This document shows, one piece after another, positions 7,678 to 57,673 of a stretch of DNA of 64,000 nucleotides. The notes beneath the pieces are model-generated. The model did no database searches and had not been told where the DNA came from. It saw nothing but the letters and a program-made list of their open reading frames with translations. Origin of the DNA: Escherichia phage EP01; sequence record OM135583.1; one strand, written 5' to 3'. Numbering within the stretch: position 1 is the first letter of the stretch; the number at the start of each line of letters is the position of its first letter. The position numbers and the translations under genes are program-made.

Positions 7678-8001
7678 TTAGTCTTCTATGATATCTCTAT
7701 CATATCCAAGTGAAATGAGAGTTTCTTTGAAGTGTTTAATGTTCTTTTGTCTAGAATCATTGATGAAAATGACTGGATAACGAATGTTAAGAGATGTGAA
7801 TCCAGCGCGTTTAGCAAGAGATACAATCAGTGGACGATCATACTCAATCTTACCATTATTTGTAAGAACTTTATAGAAAGTAAAAGGAGCATTGAGCTCC
7901 TTTAGAAGTTTTGTAACTGATTGACATCCAGGACAACGACCTACTTCATCTGGAATTCCATAGACTTCAATCTTATTCTTTAAGTTCGAGTTTTGTTCCA
8001 C
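7678..8001 (-). CDS. nrdH: Glutaredoxin-like protein NrdH
   Basis: CPGCQ redox motif in KIEVYGIPDEVGRCPGCQSV; start uncertain (in-frame GTG at 8001; longer track ORF overlaps upstream gene). Confidence 0.7.
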   Translation of the reverse strand: MEQNSNLKNKIEVYGIPDEVGRCPGCQSVTKLLKELNAPFTFYKVLTNNGKIEYDRPLIVSLAKRAGFTSLNIRYPVIFINDSRQKNIKHFKETLISLGYDRDIIED

Positions 8002-8284
8002 GAGAAATAATTCCTTGATAAGCCCAGTATGGCGGGTTAACAGAATCATCGCCAGAATTTTCTTCAGGAAAATAAACCTGGATAACAAATCCAGATGCAT
8101 CAAAGGTAAAATAAACCGTAGGTAATTCACCTAACAATTCAGCGCGGTTATTAATTTCTTCAAGTTCTCGTTCTCGTCCAGCCCAAAAACTAGGATTTAG
8201 ACTACATTCATAGAAATAATAGTCATTACCGAACATATCAAAACCCTTCCAACTCTCTACCACATACCGCTCAAAACTAATCAT
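7973..8284 (-). CDS. Hypothetical protein
   Basis: 103-aa ORF on coding strand. Confidence 0.6.
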   Translation of the reverse strand: MISFERYVVESWKGFDMFGNDYYFYECSLNPSFWAGRERELEEINNRAELLGELPTVYFTFDASGFVIQVYFPEENSGDDSVNPPYWAYQGIISRGTKLELKE

Positions 8285-8286
8285 AA

Positions 8287-8526
8287 TTAAGCCTTTTTAT
8301 CAAGAACAGCATTCAGTTTGTTAGTAATTTTATCCAGACGCTCATTGAACTCGCTAGAAGATAGTCCTTTTTCTGGAGAAATTAAGCTAATCACGAAAAA
8401 TATAGCAATAAAAGGAATAAGAAAAATAGCACCAACTGCCATAAACAAAAAGAACGTTACAGTTGTAAGAAAATCAGCTAAACCTTTACGAAATTTATAC
8501 ATATTTACCCTTAATTGATTAACCAA
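8287..8526 (-). CDS. Small membrane protein
   Basis: 79 aa with a long hydrophobic segment TTVTFFLFMAVGAIFLIPFIAIFFVISLI. Confidence 0.6.
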   Translation of the reverse strand: MVNQLRVNMYKFRKGLADFLTTVTFFLFMAVGAIFLIPFIAIFFVISLISPEKGLSSSEFNERLDKITNKLNAVLDKKA

Positions 8527-8616: not shown

Positions 8617-9087
8617 TTAATCATGTTTCCACACCCCATCGGTATTTGACCAAAGTCGCTGATTATCTGAACCTCGCCACAGCTTTTTGGTCGGAAGATT
8701 TTTCTCATACTTCCCATCAATAATAACATCAACATATTTAAGCATTTCTAGTTGTTTAATATCTTCAAATTTATATCCTGTCCACAACCAAATGCTTTTA
8801 TTTGGATAAAGATTTTTTACCGTTTGAACAATGCAATGAACAGCATCTCGGTTATCAGGATAAAGAGGGTCACCTCCAGTTATAGTTAATCCTTCTATAT
8901 AATCATTATTCAAACATTCAATTAATTGTTCTAGTGTTTCACCAGTGAATGGAACGCCATTTCTAGCATTCCATGTTGATTTATTATAACACCCTTCACA
9001 TTTATGCAAACACCCCGTAACGAAAAGAACGACCCTGCATCCAGGGCCATTCACAAAATCGCAGGGATAAAATCTATCGTAATTCAT
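8617..9087 (-). CDS. nrdG: Anaerobic ribonucleotide reductase activating protein (radical SAM)
   Basis: 156 aa; CLHKCEGCYNK cysteine cluster; directly downstream of nrdD. Confidence 0.92.
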   Translation of the reverse strand: MNYDRFYPCDFVNGPGCRVVLFVTGCLHKCEGCYNKSTWNARNGVPFTGETLEQLIECLNNDYIEGLTITGGDPLYPDNRDAVHCIVQTVKNLYPNKSIWLWTGYKFEDIKQLEMLKYVDVIIDGKYEKNLPTKKLWRGSDNQRLWSNTDGVWKHD

Positions 9088-10901
9088 TGGTGTTTAATCC
9101 TATGCATGATTTCTTTATTTTTGCCAAGATTAAATCCGCGCTCGTTCGGATTTCCCAAATAGCCACATGTTCTTCTTATTGTGTTCATCTTTTTAGGATC
9201 AGTTTCTCCACAAATAGAACAAACAAATCCGTTTTCAGTAGGAGTCATTTCATGGGTACTTCCACATGTAAAACATTTATCTACTGGCATATTAACACCA
9301 AAATAATCTAAATGTTGTGCAGCATAATCCCATACAGCCTCAAGACCTTTTAGGTTATTTTTCATATCAGGAAGTTCAACATAAGAAATGTGACCACCTG
9401 TCGCAATGAAATGATATGGTGCTTCACGAGAAATCTTTTCAAATGGAGTAATATTTTCTTCTACCGAAACGTGGAAACTGTTAGTGTACCAGCCTTTATC
9501 GGTAACATCTTTTACACTTCCATATTTTTCGGTATCAAGTTTACAGAAGCGGTAGCACAGGTTTTCAGCAGGTGTAGAATACAAACTAAAAGCAAAACCG
9601 GTTCTTTCGGTCCACTGCTTAAGACGAGCATTCATTTTAGTTAAAATTTCTTGTCCAATATCACGACCGACAAGAATATTCAATTCGTGAATACCAATGT
9701 ATCCTAGGGACACTGAACTTCTACCGTTTTTAAATAACTCAATTATGTCATCGTCAGGTTTAAGACGAACCCCGAATGCACCTTCTTGATAAAGAATAGG
9801 AGCAACAGTCGCTTTAACTCCTTTTAAGGAACTGATTCTACACATCAAAGCTTCAAAACATAAATCCATTCGTTCATTGAACAATTCGGCAAATTTCTGT
9901 TCATTGAACTGTGTTCCAATATAAGAATCTAACGCAATTCGAGGAAGATTCAGTGTTACAACACCAAGATTATTACGTCCATCAAGAATTTCATTACCAG
10001 TCGAATCTTTCCATACGCCCAAGAAACTACGGCAACCCATTGGAGAAACAGGAATAGATGAACCAGTGATAGCTTTATTGTTCTTAGCCGAAATGATGTC
10101 AGGATACATTCTTTTGCTTGCACACTCTAGAGCAAGCTGCTTAATATCATAGTTCGGATCGTCTTTATAAAGATTAACACCTTCTTCAACGAACATAACA
10201 AGTTTAGGGAAAATAGGAGTTATCCCGTCACGACCAAGACCTTTAATACGATTTTTCAGAATTGCTTTCTGAATCATTCGTTCAGTCCAGTCAGTTCCCG
10301 TACCAAATGTAATTGTTACAAAAGGCGTTTGTCCGTTTGAGCTAAAGAGAGTATTTACTTCGTATTCATAAGCTTGGAATGCATCGTATACGTCTTTTTC
10401 TGTTTTAGATTGGGCATAATTCAATGCATCAGCGATTTGCCATTTTTCTGCGTCCTCAATATGTTTTGCGTAGGTGCGTTTAACATAAGGAGAAAGGACT
10501 TTATCTACATTCGCAAAAGTCGTTCCGCCATATTGATGGGAAGCAACCTGCGCAGTAATTTGTGCCATAATTGCAGTAGCAACGCCGATTGATTTAGGAG
10601 TTTCAATCTGCGCATTACCGAGCTTAAATCCGTTCTCAAGCATTCCTTTTAAATCTACTAAACAGCAATTAGTAAATGGAAGAGCGGGGGAATAATCAAT
10701 ATCATGGAAATGGATAATTCCGCTTTCATGCGCTTTCATAATAAAAGACGGGACCATATTTTTGGCAATGTGTTTAGACACAATACCAGCCATAAGGTCC
10801 CGTTGAGTTGGAAAAACACGAGAATCTTTATTAGCATTCTCGTTTAAAAGGTCTTTATTAGTTTTATGAATTAATCCTTCAATTTCTTTTTCAATTGTCA
10901 T
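9084..10901 (-). CDS. nrdD: Anaerobic ribonucleoside-triphosphate reductase (glycyl radical enzyme)
   Basis: 605 aa uninterrupted; C-terminal glycyl radical motif RRTCGYLG; Cys-rich zinc ribbon CFTCGSTHE...CSICG. Confidence 0.95.
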   Translation of the reverse strand: MTIEKEIEGLIHKTNKDLLNENANKDSRVFPTQRDLMAGIVSKHIAKNMVPSFIMKAHESGIIHFHDIDYSPALPFTNCCLVDLKGMLENGFKLGNAQIETPKSIGVATAIMAQITAQVASHQYGGTTFANVDKVLSPYVKRTYAKHIEDAEKWQIADALNYAQSKTEKDVYDAFQAYEYEVNTLFSSNGQTPFVTITFGTGTDWTERMIQKAILKNRIKGLGRDGITPIFPKLVMFVEEGVNLYKDDPNYDIKQLALECASKRMYPDIISAKNNKAITGSSIPVSPMGCRSFLGVWKDSTGNEILDGRNNLGVVTLNLPRIALDSYIGTQFNEQKFAELFNERMDLCFEALMCRISSLKGVKATVAPILYQEGAFGVRLKPDDDIIELFKNGRSSVSLGYIGIHELNILVGRDIGQEILTKMNARLKQWTERTGFAFSLYSTPAENLCYRFCKLDTEKYGSVKDVTDKGWYTNSFHVSVEENITPFEKISREAPYHFIATGGHISYVELPDMKNNLKGLEAVWDYAAQHLDYFGVNMPVDKCFTCGSTHEMTPTENGFVCSICGETDPKKMNTIRRTCGYLGNPNERGFNLGKNKEIMHRIKHQ

Positions 10902-12663: not shown

Positions 12664-12879
12664 TTACCCCAGTTTGACCATGCAATCGCCATATTTCCAT
12701 TTAGAAATAGACTTTTCACCGTTAGAATAATAAACTTCGAGTTTAGCACGATTATTTTTAATTTGAATAACCTTTGCTGTCATCAAAGTTCCATACCCGT
12801 AATAAACTGCAACCTCATCACCTACATATACCGCGCTTCCGCGGTAGTCATGGATATAATCAGTTCCTTCGAGCATCAT
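12664..12879 (-). CDS. Hypothetical protein
   Basis: 71-aa ORF, ATGA overlap with nrdC. Confidence 0.55.
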   Translation of the reverse strand: MMLEGTDYIHDYRGSAVYVGDEVAVYYGYGTLMTAKVIQIKNNRAKLEVYYSNGEKSISKWKYGDCMVKLG

Positions 12880-13139
12880 TTAAAGTATTCCCGCAATTGG
12901 TCAAATCCACCAATATGACTTCCATCAGGAGCAAATACTTGTGGCATCGTCAGTCCAATTTGAGTATCACGACCCAGTTTAGTTAGAAGCTCAGCGATTT
13001 TCTCATCATCAAAAACACCTTTTTCCGGCATAATGTTGATAAATTCAAACGGCTGTTTCTTCACAGTCAAGAGACGTTTTGCATTATCGCAATACACACA
13101 TTTATGGATGTTGCTATCATAACCATATACTTTAAACAT
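12876..13139 (-). CDS. nrdC: Thioredoxin/glutaredoxin NrdC
   Basis: 87 aa (T4 NrdC length) with CVYC active site. Confidence 0.92.
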   Translation of the reverse strand: MFKVYGYDSNIHKCVYCDNAKRLLTVKKQPFEFINIMPEKGVFDDEKIAELLTKLGRDTQIGLTMPQVFAPDGSHIGGFDQLREYFK

Positions 13140-20113: not shown

Positions 20114-20145
20114 TATAGTACCATAAAGCTTTATGCTTGTAAACC
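20114..20145 (-). promoter_or_regulatory. T4-type early promoter (cassette, directly downstream of hairpin terminator)
   Basis: GTTTAC (20144-20139), 18 bp, TACTAT (20120-20115); near-identical to 18672 and 35519 cassettes. Confidence 0.6.
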
Positions 20146-20163
20146 GTTTTGTGAAAAAATTTT

Positions 20164-20194
20164 AAAATAAAAAAGGGGACCTCTAGGGCCCCCC
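20164..20194 (-). terminator. Rho-independent terminator
   Basis: Minus strand GGGGGGCCC...GGTCCCC hairpin followed by TTTTTTATTTT; just downstream of stop of 20206..20691. Confidence 0.6.
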
Positions 20195-28631: not shown

Positions 28632-28897
28632 TAATATTTTTCCTCTGGTTGGAACACAGCACGACAAGCCCACATACTGGCTTCTTTGAGTTTAGTTTTA
28701 GCAATAGTTAACTGATCAAGGCTTTCAGCATAATTCTTCGCGAATTCACAGTCTTCACAATTATCTAGTGCTTCCCAGAATTCATCATATAAAGCATCAA
28801 AGATAAGTCCTAAACGAACTTCAGCATCTTTGATAGCATTCACTTTACCGATTTTCTCTTCAGTATGTGGCTTATAACCCTTAATATCTTCAATCAT
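28631..28897 (-). CDS. Hypothetical protein (vs.4/Acb2-position small protein; identity unverified)
   Basis: 88-aa ORF in the vs-regB gene block; cannot confirm Acb2 homology by eye. Confidence 0.5.
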
Positions 28898-29111
28898 ATT
28901 TTACTTCCTCACCAGTACCCAAATCATATTCAACTAAACGAATAGGTTCATGAATGCCATATCCCTGAACAGAAATTTCTGTCGTAGGATAAATTCCACT
29001 AATATCACCCATGTTCCACGCTTCATTAAATTGCTGTTCGCCTGAATTACTAAACCACTCGGCGAAAGCATTTAGCACATCTTCAGAACCTTCAATAATT
29101 ATCTTTGCCAT
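28890..29111 (-). CDS. Hypothetical protein
   Basis: 73-aa ORF. Confidence 0.5.
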   Translation of the reverse strand: MAKIIIEGSEDVLNAFAEWFSNSGEQQFNEAWNMGDISGIYPTTEISVQGYGIHEPIRLVEYDLGTGEEVKYD

Positions 29112-29485
29112 TACAAACTCTCAGTAAAGGTACGAGCGATAACGTCGCGCTGCTGTTCCGGAGTCAGAGAGTTAAAGCGAACTGCATAACCGGATACACG
29201 GATGGTCAGCTGCGGATATTTTTCCGGATGCTTAACTGCATCTTCCAGAGTTTCGCGACGCAGAACGTTAACGTTCAGGTGTTGACCACCTTCAATTTTA
29301 ACTGTAGGTTGTGTTTCAATTTCAATTTCACGGGCATGCAAACCATAGAAAATTTCTGGGTCTACAAAAGAGTCCTCTTTAAAAGTTTTAGAGACAATAA
29401 TTCGTGCTTGAATACCATCTTCAAAATAAATAGTACCTTTATGCGTGCCTTCAAGAATTTGATATGCTTTCATATAACCTCTCAA
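29111..29485 (-). CDS. Autonomous glycyl radical cofactor (GrcA/YfiD-like; T4 Y06I-type)
   Basis: 124 aa; C-terminal ~60 aa [59 protein letters not shown] matches E. coli GrcA with glycyl radical motif RVSGY. Confidence 0.9.
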
Positions 29486-29808
29486 TTAGAAAATAAATTT
29501 ATCCAAGATTGCTCTTTAATTAAAAATGGCTCAGAATCATATGCCATTAAACTTTGGGTGATTAGTCCTTTAAAAGGTCCATCAATAAATTCCATGGCAA
29601 AATATGGAATTTTATTCATTAATCTTGCATTAGGAGCAGTGCACAAAACTCTACATCCTTTGAATACGCCTTTTTGTAATTTGTATTGCTTAGGATAAAA
29701 TTCGCTCAAGACATTGTTATTTGCCAAAATTTCAAAATGATTCACCAATTTATTTTTAATAGTTTTTGGCGAAAAATAAAGATATTCGAAAAGCTGAGTG
29801 TCTGTCAT
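29482..29808 (-). CDS. Hypothetical protein
   Basis: Track ORF 29482..29862 trimmed to Met at 29808. Confidence 0.5.
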
Positions 29809-30395
29809 CATTGCATTCCAATTACGAAAAACTGTGGACGAGTAATACCACCAATGCAGCATTTACTATTGCAACAGTGGTGCACAGTTTCAATATGAAT
29901 ATCGTAAATTTTATCCATATCAGGAGATTTAACAGGCTCATCGATTATATACAAAATCCGCGAAAGCGATAAACCTCTGAACTTGCTTCCTTTATTACCG
30001 ATAAAGCTACGGACAGAATCAGTAAATAAGCGGAATCGAATATCATCGCTAGAATAACGAGAAAATTCTTTTTTAATGTGGCCCGCAGAAATTTTAGCGT
30101 AAGCTGAAGTATTAGAAAGAACAATAACTGTTCCACCATCATACAGCCAATTAGCAGCAAAGTTAGTCACAGCAGTTGATTTACCAGATTGTCTGCCACC
30201 ATCTAAACGAAGTGTGCAATACTGTTTGAGTAAGTCTTCAAATGGTGGGATATAATCGTTTTTACAAATTTCTTCTACTCTAGCATCAGAATGGTGTGTA
30301 AAAGCATTCATCAGGGATAGATAAGGACCAGTTAAAAATGTTCTCATTTTGTTATCTCTAAATTTGGGCCATTCCGTGGCGCATGAATTGTCCAT
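29808..30395 (-). CDS. P-loop NTPase-like protein
   Basis: 195 aa; GGRQSGKST Walker A-like motif; start may be internal Met (MRTFLTG). Confidence 0.55.
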   Translation of the reverse strand: MDNSCATEWPKFRDNKMRTFLTGPYLSLMNAFTHHSDARVEEICKNDYIPPFEDLLKQYCTLRLDGGRQSGKSTAVTNFAANWLYDGGTVIVLSNTSAYAKISAGHIKKEFSRYSSDDIRFRLFTDSVRSFIGNKGSKFRGLSLSRILYIIDEPVKSPDMDKIYDIHIETVHHCCNSKCCIGGITRPQFFVIGMQ

Positions 30396-30524
30396 TTCTG
30401 TATTTACCCATTACCGCACTTGGGCTCGACCTTATTACAGGTTGGCGGGAATCCCTCACAGAATTATGAGGTCCAGCTTGTTCCCATGTTATTTGAATGT
30501 AAATAGGCCTAAGTATAGGCCTTA

Positions 30525-36725: not shown

Positions 36726-36802
36726 TGGTCGAGGCAGAAGGATTCTAACCTTCAACCAACGGATTAGAAATCCGTTGCTCTATACAATTGAGCTATGCCT
36801 CG
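36726..36802 (-). tRNA. tRNA-Arg (anticodon UCU), CCA encoded
   Basis: Hand-folded cloverleaf: acceptor CGAGGCA/TGCCTCG, anticodon loop TTTCTAA, T-loop; 5' end overlaps stop of segB ORF. Confidence 0.8.
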
Positions 36803-37470
36803 TAGTTAAAATTCATTTTTCGACCTTTAAACCATCCTTCTGGAATTGGGTCAGTTTTCTTAATACGTTTAGAAACTTTTTCATCTAATGAATGAATCCA
36901 CATCATACCAAATTGGGAATTCTTTTCACCTTGTTGGTGTTTATTTCTGGCGTGAGATTCTTTCATTTTATTAATAGTTTCAGGAGTATGGGTCTTACCC
37001 AAGAAAGATTTAGTATTTAAAAATTTCTCTCTATACTTAGGATTATCCCAAAGCTGTTTAAACCTTTCTGAACCCATTTTACGGTATTTTTCTTTAAGGT
37101 CTGGGTCGTTCTCAAATCTGATTTTAAAAGCGGCAGCTCCTTTTAAGGAAGCTTCTTTCTTTTTATCCAAATATTCTTTAGTGTTTAAATGGCCCCAACC
37201 ACCTTCACCACCTAATTTCAAATTATAAACATCAGGGCGCTTTAAAAACTCTTCAGTCACAATATTCTTTTCTGACTCAAACATAGAGGTTTTATCGTCA
37301 AAGAACTCTAATATTTCTTTAGAAAAATTTTCTATACCATACTTGTCTTGGGCTCTTTTTAATAATTTACCAGAACCCATATATCCATCATCTAAATTTT
37401 CGGTAGAATGAGCGCCTATATAGATTTTATTATTAATTTTATTTGTTATTTTATAAATGTAATGGAACAT
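36793..37470 (-). CDS. segB: GIY-YIG homing endonuclease (SegB-like) inside tRNA cluster
   Basis: 225 aa; N-terminal YIYKITNKINNKIYIGAHS GIY-YIG motif; located between tRNA-Ile and tRNA-Arg. Confidence 0.85.
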   Translation of the reverse strand: MFHYIYKITNKINNKIYIGAHSTENLDDGYMGSGKLLKRAQDKYGIENFSKEILEFFDDKTSMFESEKNIVTEEFLKRPDVYNLKLGGEGGWGHLNTKEYLDKKKEASLKGAAAFKIRFENDPDLKEKYRKMGSERFKQLWDNPKYREKFLNTKSFLGKTHTPETINKMKESHARNKHQQGEKNSQFGMMWIHSLDEKVSKRIKKTDPIPEGWFKGRKMNFNYEA

Positions 37471-37511
37471 AAATATCTCCTATTTCTAAGAGTATTTATG
37501 CTCCCAAAATA

Positions 37512-37583
37512 TGGCCCTGGGTGGAATTGAACCACCATCTGGCGATTATGAGTCGCTTGCTTGAACCTTCCAGCTACAGGGCC
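37512..37583 (-). tRNA. tRNA with CAU anticodon (T4 tRNA-Ile-like; Met not excluded)
   Basis: Hand-folded: acceptor GGCCCTG/CAGGGCC, anticodon loop CTCATAA, T-arm GGTGGTTCAATTCCACC. Confidence 0.75.
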
Positions 37584-37589
37584 TTGATA

Positions 37590-37662
37590 TGCTGATTGAC
37601 GGAATCGAACCGCCGACGTCCTCATTACAAGTGAGTTGCTCTACCTACTGAGCTAAATCAGC
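37590..37662 (-). tRNA. tRNA-Thr (UGU)
   Basis: Acceptor GCTGATT/AATCAGC, anticodon loop CTTGTAA, T-loop GGTTCGATTCC. Confidence 0.8.
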
Positions 37663-37669
37663 GAAATTA

Positions 37670-37756
37670 CGGAGGCGATAGGATTTGAACCTATGAGTCG
37701 CCGGAGCGACTGCCGGTTTTCAAGACCGGTGCATTAAACCACTCTGCCACGCCTCC
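37670..37756 (-). tRNA. tRNA-Ser (UGA), long variable arm
   Basis: Acceptor GGAGGCG/CGCCTCC, anticodon loop CTTGAAA, long variable arm, T-loop GGTTCAAATCC. Confidence 0.8.
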
Positions 37757-37758
37757 AG

Positions 37759-37832
37759 TCTCCGCGGCAGGATTTGAACCTGCGACATTCTGCTCCCAAA
37801 GCAGACGCTCTACCAAACTGAGCTACACGGAG
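37759..37832 (-). tRNA. tRNA-Pro (UGG)
   Basis: Acceptor CTCCGTG/CGCGGAG, anticodon loop TTTGGGA, T-loop GGTTCAAATCC. Confidence 0.8.
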
Positions 37833-37844
37833 TAAATTAAATTT

Positions 37845-37916
<72 letters not shown>

Positions 37917-37922
37917 AAACTT

Positions 37923-38009
37923 TGGTACGAGAAGTGGGACTCGAACCCACAAGGAAATCATTCCGCAGCATTTTAAGTGCTGTGCCTTTACCAATTTGAC
38001 CATTCTCGC
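37923..38009 (-). tRNA. tRNA-Leu (UAA), long variable arm, CCA encoded
   Basis: Acceptor GCGAGAA/TTCTCGT, anticodon loop CTTAAAA, T-loop GGTTCGAGTCC, ACCA 3' end. Confidence 0.8.
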
Positions 38010-38010
38010 G

Positions 38011-38083
38011 CTGGGAATAAAGGACTCGAACCTTTGCATCCTGGAATCAAAATCCAGTGCCTTACCAACTTGGCTAATTCCCA
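38011..38083 (-). tRNA. tRNA-Gln (UUG)
   Basis: Acceptor TGGGAAT/ATTCCCA, anticodon loop TTTTGAT, T-loop GGTTCGAGTCC; tRNA order Gln-Leu-Gly-Pro-Ser-Thr-Ile...Arg matches T4. Confidence 0.8.
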
Positions 38084-56120: not shown

Positions 56121-57673
56121 GTAACAATACATATCAGCACGTATCAAATGAATCAAAATATGTTAAATTCGATCCTACTGGATCGAATTTTCCTAACACT
56201 GTTACGACAGTGCAGTCTGCATTATCAAAAATAAGTAATATCGGCGTAAATGGTATTCCTGATGCAACTATGGAAGTTAAAGGAATAGCAATGATTGCGT
56301 CAGAACAAGAGGTTTTAGATGGAACTAATAATTCTAAAATCGTTACGCCAGCTACATTAGCAACAAGGTTATTATACCCAAATGCTACTGAAACTAAATA
56401 TGGTTTAACGCGTTATTCAACAAATGAAGAAACGTTAGAAGGCTCAGATAATAATTCATCAATAACGCCGCAAAAACTGAAATACCATACTGACGATGTG
56501 TTCCAAAATAGATATTCGTCTGAGTCATCAAACGGGGTTATTAAAATATCATCTACACCTGCAGCTTTAGCTGGAGTTGATGATACTACGGCAATGACTC
56601 CATTAAAAACGCAAAAACTTGCAATAAAATTAATTTCACAAATAGCTCCTTCCGAAGATACTGCATCAGAATCTGTGAGAGGTGTAGTTCAATTATCTAC
56701 TGTTGCGCAAACTCGTCAAGGAACTCTCCGCGAAGGATATGCAATTTCTCCGTATACCTTTATGAATTCTGTTGCAACACAAGAATATAAGGGTGTTATA
56801 CGTTTAGGAACACAATCGGAAATTAACAGTAATTTGGGAGATGTTGCAGTAACGGGTGAAACACTAAATGGTCGAGGAGCTACTGGTTCTATGCGTGGAG
56901 TAGTTAAATTAACGACGCAAGCCGGTATTGCCCCTGAAGGTGATAGCTCTGGTGCATTAGCATGGAACGCAGATGTAATTAATACTCGTGGTGGACAAAC
57001 TATTAATGGTTCTTTAAATTTAGACCATCTTACAGCAAATGGAATTTGGTCACGCGGCGGTATGTGGAAAAATGGCGATCAACCTGTTGCCACTGAAAGA
57101 TATGCGTCCGAAAGGGTTCCAGTCGGAACTATTATGATGTTTGCGGGTGATTCAGCACCTCCTGGTTGGATTATGTGCCACGGTGGAACCGTCTCAGGTG
57201 CCCAATTTCCTGATTATAGAAACACAGTTGGAACAAGATTTGGTGGTGATTGGAATAATCCTGGTATTCCTGATATGCGAGGTCTTTTTGTTAGAGGAGC
57301 TGGCACAGGCAGTCATATTTTAAATCAACGCGGACAAAATGGTTATGGGAAGGATAGACTTGGTGTAGGATGCGACGGAATGCATGTTGGTGGTGTTCAG
57401 GCACAACAAATGTCATACCATAAACATGCTGGTGCCTGGGGGGAAAATGGAAATAACAGAGGTTATGCACCGTTTGGCGCATCTAATCGCAGTGGATATT
57501 TAGGCAATGGTAAAAGCGCCGACTGGGACAACCATTTGTTCTTTACTAACGACGGATTTGAAATGGGTGGTGCTCGTGACTCGTTTGGCACGTTAAACCG
57601 TGAAGGATTAATTGGTTATGAAACTAGACCATGGAATATATCATTAAACTATATTATTAAAGTTCATTACTAA
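56117..57673 (+). CDS. 12: Short tail fiber protein gp12
   Basis: 518 aa; position and T4-like C-terminus. Confidence 0.92.

Follow-up and report, generated by a model that had tools for sequence, protein, structure and literature searches.

A host-identical tract in the vs.6 gene of Escherichia phage EP01 and its probable origin by gene conversion from host grcA

How does one half of a gene in a strictly lytic T-even phage come to be identical, nucleotide for nucleotide, to a chromosomal gene of its host, while the other half is not? The question is raised by vs.6 (protein Y06I), the autonomous glycyl radical cofactor gene of Escherichia phage EP01 (record OM135583.1), which was analyzed here within a stretch of 64,000 nucleotides (nt), called the window. 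A sequence-only reading, made from the letters without database searches, had placed a GrcA-like gene at this site on the minus strand, which was borne out (coding sequence [CDS], 29111-29473), and had proposed a recent capture of the 3' part of host grcA, fused to a phage-derived 5' part. The comparisons described below uphold the capture and reject the fusion: vs.6 is very probably an old phage homologue of grcA, the 3' half of which was overwritten by host grcA in Escherichia coli phages through gene conversion, and independently so in Klebsiella phages. Since the gene and its biochemical function are already known, the value of the locus lies in the evolutionary mechanism. The gene is divided as follows.

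29111-29473, minus strand: vs.6 (Y06I) CDS, phage autonomous glycyl radical cofactor (open reading frame [ORF]; annotation in T4, RB14, and SF2-1; Pfam; PDB)
29296-29473, minus strand: 5' half, from codon 1 through the first base of codon 60; phage-type and rich in AT, a diverged homologue of the GrcA N terminus, inherited within Tevenvirinae (GC content, identity, hidden Markov model [HMM])
29121-29295, minus strand: conversion tract of host origin; codons 60-118 (gene positions 179-353), which encode the entire PflB-like glycyl radical domain in E. coli codon usage (nucleotide identity)
29111-29120, minus strand: 3' tail of phage type, made up of the third base of codon 118 and AGT TTG TAA (alignment)
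29478-29483, minus strand: GAGAGG, Shine-Dalgarno-like, 4 nt upstream of the vs.6 ATG (sequence)

The host-identical tract and its edges

Window positions 29121-29295 form an uninterrupted run of 175/175 nt, with zero mismatches to grcA of E. coli K-12, and of 5,426 complete E. coli genomes, K-12 and many others match the tract at 100% and the remainder at 98.3 to 99.4%. The 5' edge is abrupt and lies immediately ahead of the codons for EGGQHLNV; beyond it, positions 29296-29473 share 48% of nucleotides with E. coli grcA in a protein-guided codon alignment. At the other end, phage and E. coli spell the final three sense codons with different synonyms (GAG AGT TTG and GAA AGC CTG, respectively), so that the tract ends within the gene. 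The segment thus qualifies as a host conversion tract, being identical to the host at every position and flanked by far lower identity on one side and by phage-type final codons on the other. At the protein level, the C-terminal 61 residues are identical to those of E. coli GrcA (YfiD), the RVSGY motif included, whereas the N-terminal half is ∼31% identical (18/58 amino acids [aa]) and 7 residues shorter. The sequence-only reading was therefore right that about 60 C-terminal codons match E. coli GrcA, although its coordinates for the part (29111-29285) were about 10 nt off; nucleotide identity to host grcA is far higher in this part than in the rest of the gene.

Other donors were compared and rejected. 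The tract is only 79.5% and 75.9% identical to pflB and tdcE, respectively, which rules out both; the longest exact run with Escherichia sp. MOD1 is 71 nt, and Salmonella, Citrobacter, and other hosts are at most 92% identical. A megablast search of the whole window against all E. coli genomes found no other natural E. coli-like stretch. Its sole other match was a 68-nt segment (window 20126-20193), 97% identical to E. coli strain BE104, where truncated copies of msrA and intI1 flank the site and aadA1 adjoins it; the match seems to reflect phage DNA built into an engineered cassette rather than natural host sequence.

Composition agrees with the division of the gene, and the host-like GC content and codons that had been read in the 3' part, together with an AT-rich 5' part, were confirmed. 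The tract has a GC content of 0.497, compared with 0.326 for the 5' half and a window average of 0.350, and GC at third codon positions is 0.44 versus 0.17. All five Leu codons of the tract are CTG, which makes up 6% of Leu codons in phage ORFs, and all three Pro codons are CCG (12% in phage ORFs). Against the phage background, the tract is distinct (z = 3.2), with only 0.4% of 175-nt windows equally GC-rich, and a GC step as large as that at the junction occurs at no more than 0.5% of positions. The tract is not the only such outlier in the window: most of the remaining GC-rich 175-nt segments belong to the tRNA cluster at 36726-38083 (minus strand), which holds eight genes (Arg, Met, Thr, Ser, Pro, Gly, Leu, and Gln), and a further GC-rich stretch occurs at 57023-57227. 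Moreover, GC also rises from the 5' to the 3' half by 0.00 to 0.12 in lineages without a host-like tract, compared with 0.15 to 0.19 in those with one, and part of the shift is intrinsic to the protein through its amino acid content. Composition as proof in its own right was thus set aside, and nucleotide identity is decisive.

The tract is widespread among related phages. Identity to it reaches 95% or more in 642 phage records and 90 to 95% in only 2; the former comprise phages of Escherichia and Shigella and some labelled Yersinia, Salmonella, or Citrobacter, belong to Tequatrovirus/Mosigvirus, and include the T4 GenBank entry X04567. In about 190 of the 642, the 5' half is only 80 to 95% identical, and between the window and Klebsiella T4-like phages its nucleotide identity is 72 to 78%. 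Compared with the window, Mosigvirus genomes are 76 to 77% identical in the 320-nt flanks on each side, 88 to 89% in the 5' half of vs.6, and 97.7 to 98.3% in the tract (5' half versus tract, Fisher p of about 5e-5 to 6e-4). These identities mark the tract as a homogenised island younger than the split between Tequatrovirus and Mosigvirus.

Two further observations concern single phages. The T4 reference vs.6 (L163:5558-5920) carries CAT (His) at codon 73 within the tract, where the window and E. coli have CGC (Arg), and GAA at codon 118, as in E. coli, so individual phages have gathered private changes in and around the tract. An E. coli-type tract is also present in PV654520, labelled a Pseudomonas phage, and the tract may tell the natural host better than the isolation label does.

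Donor, direction, and the gene that received the tract

Near-invariance of the C-terminal protein across hosts and phages raises the possibility that extreme constraint, through an RNA element or selection at the codon level, has kept the segment identical in the absence of any transfer. Phages of the RB16/ENT3 type argue otherwise, because they encode the same C-terminal 61 residues and are only 82 to 85% identical in nucleotides to any sampled host, with exact runs of at most 29 nt; protein constraint cannot explain identity at 175/175 positions. In addition, RB43-type phages encode nearly the same protein at similar identity, grcA genes of different host genera diverge by 8 to 16% in this segment, and each phage group matches its own host species. 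Taken together, these comparisons refute constraint, which we consider exceedingly improbable. A transfer from phage to host, for which the two-way exchange proposed for cyanophage psbA (PMC1484495) offers a parallel, or a sequencing or assembly artefact, is nearly as improbable. E. coli grcA has diverged from its counterparts in other genera to an equal degree in both halves (84/84% identity with Salmonella and 85/88% with Klebsiella pneumoniae), both have host-like GC, and the gene stands in a conserved ung-grcA-eamB context, so the host is the donor; the tract also has host-type composition and codon usage and occurs in all 5,426 E. coli genomes. An artefact is contradicted by the presence of the tract in 642 independent phage records, including T4 X04567. 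Single polymorphisms could nevertheless have moved from phage to host. Together, these comparisons support the view that the 3' part of vs.6 is a recent import from host grcA, as the sequence-only reading had it.

What the tract was imported into is a separate matter. A captured fragment of host grcA joined to an unrelated phage ORF would give a chimeric gene with a junction sharp in both composition and identity, as is seen, and the N-terminal 59 aa taken alone match no Pfam or NCBIfam family. This fusion is nonetheless very unlikely. Residues 1-57 score 12.7 bits (E = 5.6e-6) with an HMM built from 71 bacterial GrcA N termini, compared with a best score of 6.7 bits among 980 shuffles, and alignments of the protein to GrcA by BLASTP, NCBIfam, and PDB reach back to residues 20-22. 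Furthermore, the phage-type last three sense codons place homology on both sides of the tract, and related phages possess the complete gene with a phage-type 3' half. Such full-length homologues were found in CC31-, RB16/RB43-, KP15-, RB49-, and T5-type phages, and in none of them do exact runs with the sampled hosts, K. pneumoniae included, exceed 35 nt. The CC31-type gene, with a T4-type N terminus and a phage-type 3' half about 80% identical to hosts, shows what vs.6 would have looked like before conversion. Since tract-free, full-length relatives exist and the N terminus is GrcA-like, the tract represents partial gene conversion of an existing phage grcA homologue and not a fusion, and the supposedly phage-derived 5' part is a diverged GrcA N terminus.

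Host-matched recurrence and the number of events

The mosaic recurs in phages of other hosts. Four Klebsiella T4-like phages were examined (15882-3-1, Roth67, ATCCa, and ValerieMcCarty02; L174-L177, with vs.6 at locus positions 1023-1385), three of which are annotated as Jiaodavirus, and grcA was retrieved from K. pneumoniae, K. variicola, K. michiganensis, and K. aerogenes for comparison. All four phages show the same mosaic, with a GC content of 0.36 to 0.37 in the 5' part and 0.54 to 0.57 in the 3' part, and share exact runs of 44 to 131 nt with K. pneumoniae alleles (101 to 131 nt in three of the four). An IMG/VR fragment at a contig end (L157) has an exact run of 134 nt with K. pneumoniae grcA. 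Klebsiella phages share the codon of the 5' junction with T4; their 3' junction, at about gene positions 325-345, precedes that of T4. In the phage collection, 94 records carry the K. pneumoniae tract at 95 to 99% identity and 37 at 90 to 95%, the rows sampled being all Klebsiella phages; by label, the totals are 128 Klebsiella and 4 Raoultella phage records.

The donor matches the host species. E. coli phages are at least 95% identical to the E. coli tract and 85 to 87% to that of K. pneumoniae, whereas Klebsiella phages are 90 to 99% identical to the K. pneumoniae tract and 86 to 88% to that of E. coli. The encoded residues track the host as well, reading LEDAVKH in E. coli and its phages and LLDAVEH in Klebsiella and its phages. 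A third donor is suggested by an IMG/VR contig from an oral metagenome (UViG_3300008607_000007; L103:1492-1893), the grcA homologue of which carries a ∼77-nt Haemophilus-like patch with 2/77 differences from Haemophilus grcA, versus 22/93 in the preceding stretch (p = 4e-5); this patch is absent from five sister contigs (comparison with L074/L080). Thus, independent events are found in three lineages with three donors, namely, E. coli, K. pneumoniae, and Haemophilus. As a separate observation, the C-terminal domain of RB16- and ENT3-type phages (and nearly that of the RB43 type) is identical in protein to that of E. coli GrcA, including the E. coli-specific LEDAVKH, at ∼82 to 85% nucleotide identity, and KP15-type Klebsiella phages have the Klebsiella-type LLDAVEH. 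Such host-type residues could stem from earlier conversions that have since ameliorated, or selection could have favored residues that match the host.

Variation within the tract bears on whether the exchange has been repeated within a lineage. Thirteen Tequatrovirus/Mosigvirus genes were compared with six E. coli alleles. The window tract equals the K-12 allele, the tracts of RB14, L085, and L088 equal an LF82-type allele (T at gene position 219), and those of L086 and AV117 equal a B4103-1-type allele (T219 and A282) plus one change each. Overall, the 13 phage genes differ from living E. coli alleles by 0 to 5 nt in the tract (0 to 4 except in SF2-1), a spread similar to that among the E. 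coli alleles, which differ from K-12 by 0 to 3 nt. Between the Klebsiella phages Roth67 and 15882-3-1, five sites of the tract vary, and at three of them the variants match the K. pneumoniae alleles L181/L180 in site, bases, and phase (P = 0.01). These allele matches in Klebsiella phages are suggestive of repetition within a lineage, and on the available alignments repeated exchange between host and phage within a lineage seems likely.

Several observations weigh against this account or limit it. No phage of the collection has a Salmonella-matched tract at more than 90% identity, and E. coli phages of the RB16/RB43/RB49 types are without any tract, so conversion is not general to every phage grcA. 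Tequatroviruses with Yersinia, Salmonella, or Citrobacter host labels keep the E. coli tract, and host tracking is therefore not instantaneous. For the GrcA family (NCBIfam TIGR04365, InterPro IPR011140; expected size of about 120 to 130 aa), vs.6 scores 154.6 bits (residues 20-120 on profile positions 25-126), below the equivalog cutoff of 170 bits, because its N terminus is divergent. Moreover, we infer the recombination mechanism and any selective benefit. The most direct challenge is that all 13 sampled Tequatrovirus/Mosigvirus genes have the same 5' junction and a near-identical 3' tail, which is equally compatible with one conversion followed by spread from phage to phage, and that the occurrence of three of five E. 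coli polymorphic sites in the phages is an overlap not significant by itself (P = 0.10 with six host alleles). T4-like phages also recombine very actively with one another. A single conversion in the Tequatrovirus/Mosigvirus ancestor, or one event spread between phages, with later point mutations and no continuing host exchange, would fit these data; we regard it as somewhat unlikely, because the tracts differ from host alleles by no more than 5 nt while the two genera differ by 11 to 12% in the 5' half and 23% in the flanks, different phages hold tracts identical to different host alleles, the three Klebsiella-phage polymorphisms match two K. pneumoniae alleles in phase, and the independent events in other lineages show recurrence.

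Gene conversion could have proceeded along the following lines. Strong purifying selection on the glycyl radical domain would keep phage and host copies ∼80 to 85% identical, with exact runs of 20 to 35 nt, and this similarity would let the phage recombination machinery align the phage gene with pieces of host chromosome left by degradation, so that rare homeologous recombination installs a host segment. The upstream junction would be set where homology ends, just before EGGQHLNV, and the downstream end would fall short of the stop by a few codons. Retention of the phage-type tail may be due to the ribosome-binding sequence GAGAG (GAGG in Klebsiella phages) that it supplies for the overlapping start of vs.5, a reason with which the GAAAG of the T4 tail is at odds. 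After the first event, 175 nt of perfect homology would ease further conversion, and the tract would be refreshed from host alleles, spread between phages, or both.

Intragenic recombination between host and phage, with patchy GC, has been described for cyanophage psbA/psbD (Zeidner et al. 2005; Sullivan et al. 2006, PMC1484495). Common to both systems are a metabolic gene of host origin in T4-like phages, uneven GC along that gene, exchange of segments with the host copy, and a donor limited by host range. The vs.6 system differs in its enteric host and in an import that consists of one block, whose defined junction coincides with the edge of a conserved domain and whose sequence is identical to living host alleles; its junction also recurs in two phage genera with two host species. 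As for the machinery, marker rescue and plasmid-phage recombination are laboratory phenomena in which T4 recombination proteins readily copy homologous cytosine-containing DNA into the phage genome. The likeness is that homologous DNA in the infected cell is copied into the phage genome, and the difference is that for vs.6 the chromosome of a natural host would serve as donor and that initial pairing would have to occur at only about 80 to 85% identity. Tentatively, the 3' tract of vs.6 may be continuously refreshed by marker rescue from the chromosome of the currently infected host, a proposal that we hold to be possible and short of probable. If true, lytic T-even phages would routinely sample host DNA through homologous recombination, and the tract would document recent hosts at the level of species or even allele and could be used as a host tag for T4-like phages. 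Selection would then keep the phage cofactor exactly matched to host PflB/PflA, as suggested by LEDAVKH versus LLDAVEH.

The cofactor, its neighbors, and the meaning of the mosaic

The identity of vs.6 is supported by annotation, domain content, and gene order. Its start is the ATG at 29473, preceded by GAGAGG, and the same start is annotated in T4, RB14, and SF2-1; the TTG at 29485 is only the mechanical start of the listed ORF. A CDS of identical length (363 nt, encoding 120 aa plus stop) is annotated in RB14, T4 (NP_049730, with the RefSeq product name "autonomous glycyl radical cofactor GrcA"), and Shigella phage SF2-1. The window gene differs from T4 vs.6 by 7 of 363 nt, and the proteins differ in few residues only; both genes lie between vs.7 and vs.5. 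The stand-alone GrcA architecture is present, comprising 120 aa, a PflB-like glycyl radical domain, and RVSGY, in which Gly is residue 95. Pfam Gly_radical matches residues 60-101 (E = 2.2e-18), the solved GrcA structure PDB 6OWR matches the protein (E = 5e-42), and residues 58-120 align with PflB 697-759.

The gene order is lysozyme e, internal protein genes, vs.8, vs.7, vs.6, vs.5, and, farther on, regB, vs, and tk, the same as in T4, RB14, and SF2-1. The GAGAGG ahead of vs.6 overlaps the stop codon of vs.7 (ORF 29482-29862), consistent with tight polycistronic packing. Likewise, the ATG of vs.5 (ORF 28890-29111) overlaps the vs.6 stop codon (TAATG), and a GAGAG in the vs.6 tail, 6 nt ahead of that ATG, is a putative Shine-Dalgarno sequence for vs.5. 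A scan for promoters and terminators near vs.6 yielded nothing above shuffle expectation and no convincing promoter. Farther away, the intergenic region between an internal-protein-like gene and vs.8 (30396-30524) is locally GC-rich (about 0.50) and contains a perfect 7-bp hairpin (AGGCCT…AGGCCT, 30505-30522) that is terminator-like when read on both strands.

T4 Y06I had been described in the sequence-only reading as a known autonomous glycyl radical cofactor, and rightly so: according to Wagner et al. (2001), as cited in PMC8683613, it is characterized as such, and PFL (pyruvate formate-lyase) activase activates both Y06I and YfiD, which restore the activity of oxygen-cleaved PFL. Judging by its near-identity to T4 Y06I, the window protein would act in the same way, and no functional difference from T4 Y06I or E. 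coli GrcA is named for it. It would become a glycyl radical carrier once activated by host PflA, which would install the radical, and the activated protein would dock on oxygen-cleaved host PflB and restore its activity.

The same reading had joined vs.6 with nrdD, nrdG, and nrdH in a toolkit for anaerobic infection. The features concerned are as follows.

9084-10901, minus strand: nrdD, 605 aa, with NRDD and Gly_radical domains (domain matches)
8617-9087, minus strand: nrdG, radical SAM activase
12876-13139, minus strand: ORF with a glutaredoxin/thioredoxin fold (fold match)

Thus, the window contains both nrdD and nrdG, although they lie 18 kb away and do not adjoin the vs cluster. Immediately beyond nrdG on its downstream side, the ORFs at 7973-8284 and 8287-8526 have matches solely to PHROG families without a known function, and nrdH is therefore not confirmed. 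The link between vs.6 and the nrd genes is thematic only and not a locus.

The host-matched vs.6 mosaic is a new example of intragenic recombination between host and phage, and an unusually clean one. No description of it was found in the searchable literature, older subscription papers lying outside that search, so an earlier mention is possible. Trees and codon-usage analyses of vs.6 should be read with caution, since they mix two histories. The locus provides a clean, datable chromosomal segment from a living host species in strictly lytic, host-DNA-degrading T-even phages, T4 included, and the process appears to be general, considering that a matched donor recurs in Klebsiella phages and that the junction is set by the edge of conservation. 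The tract may mark the recent host species of a T4-like phage, and the vs.6/grcA pair offers a direct experimental handle on gene flow from host to phage. More broadly, strongly conserved host-derived phage genes may act as landing pads for continuing gene conversion.

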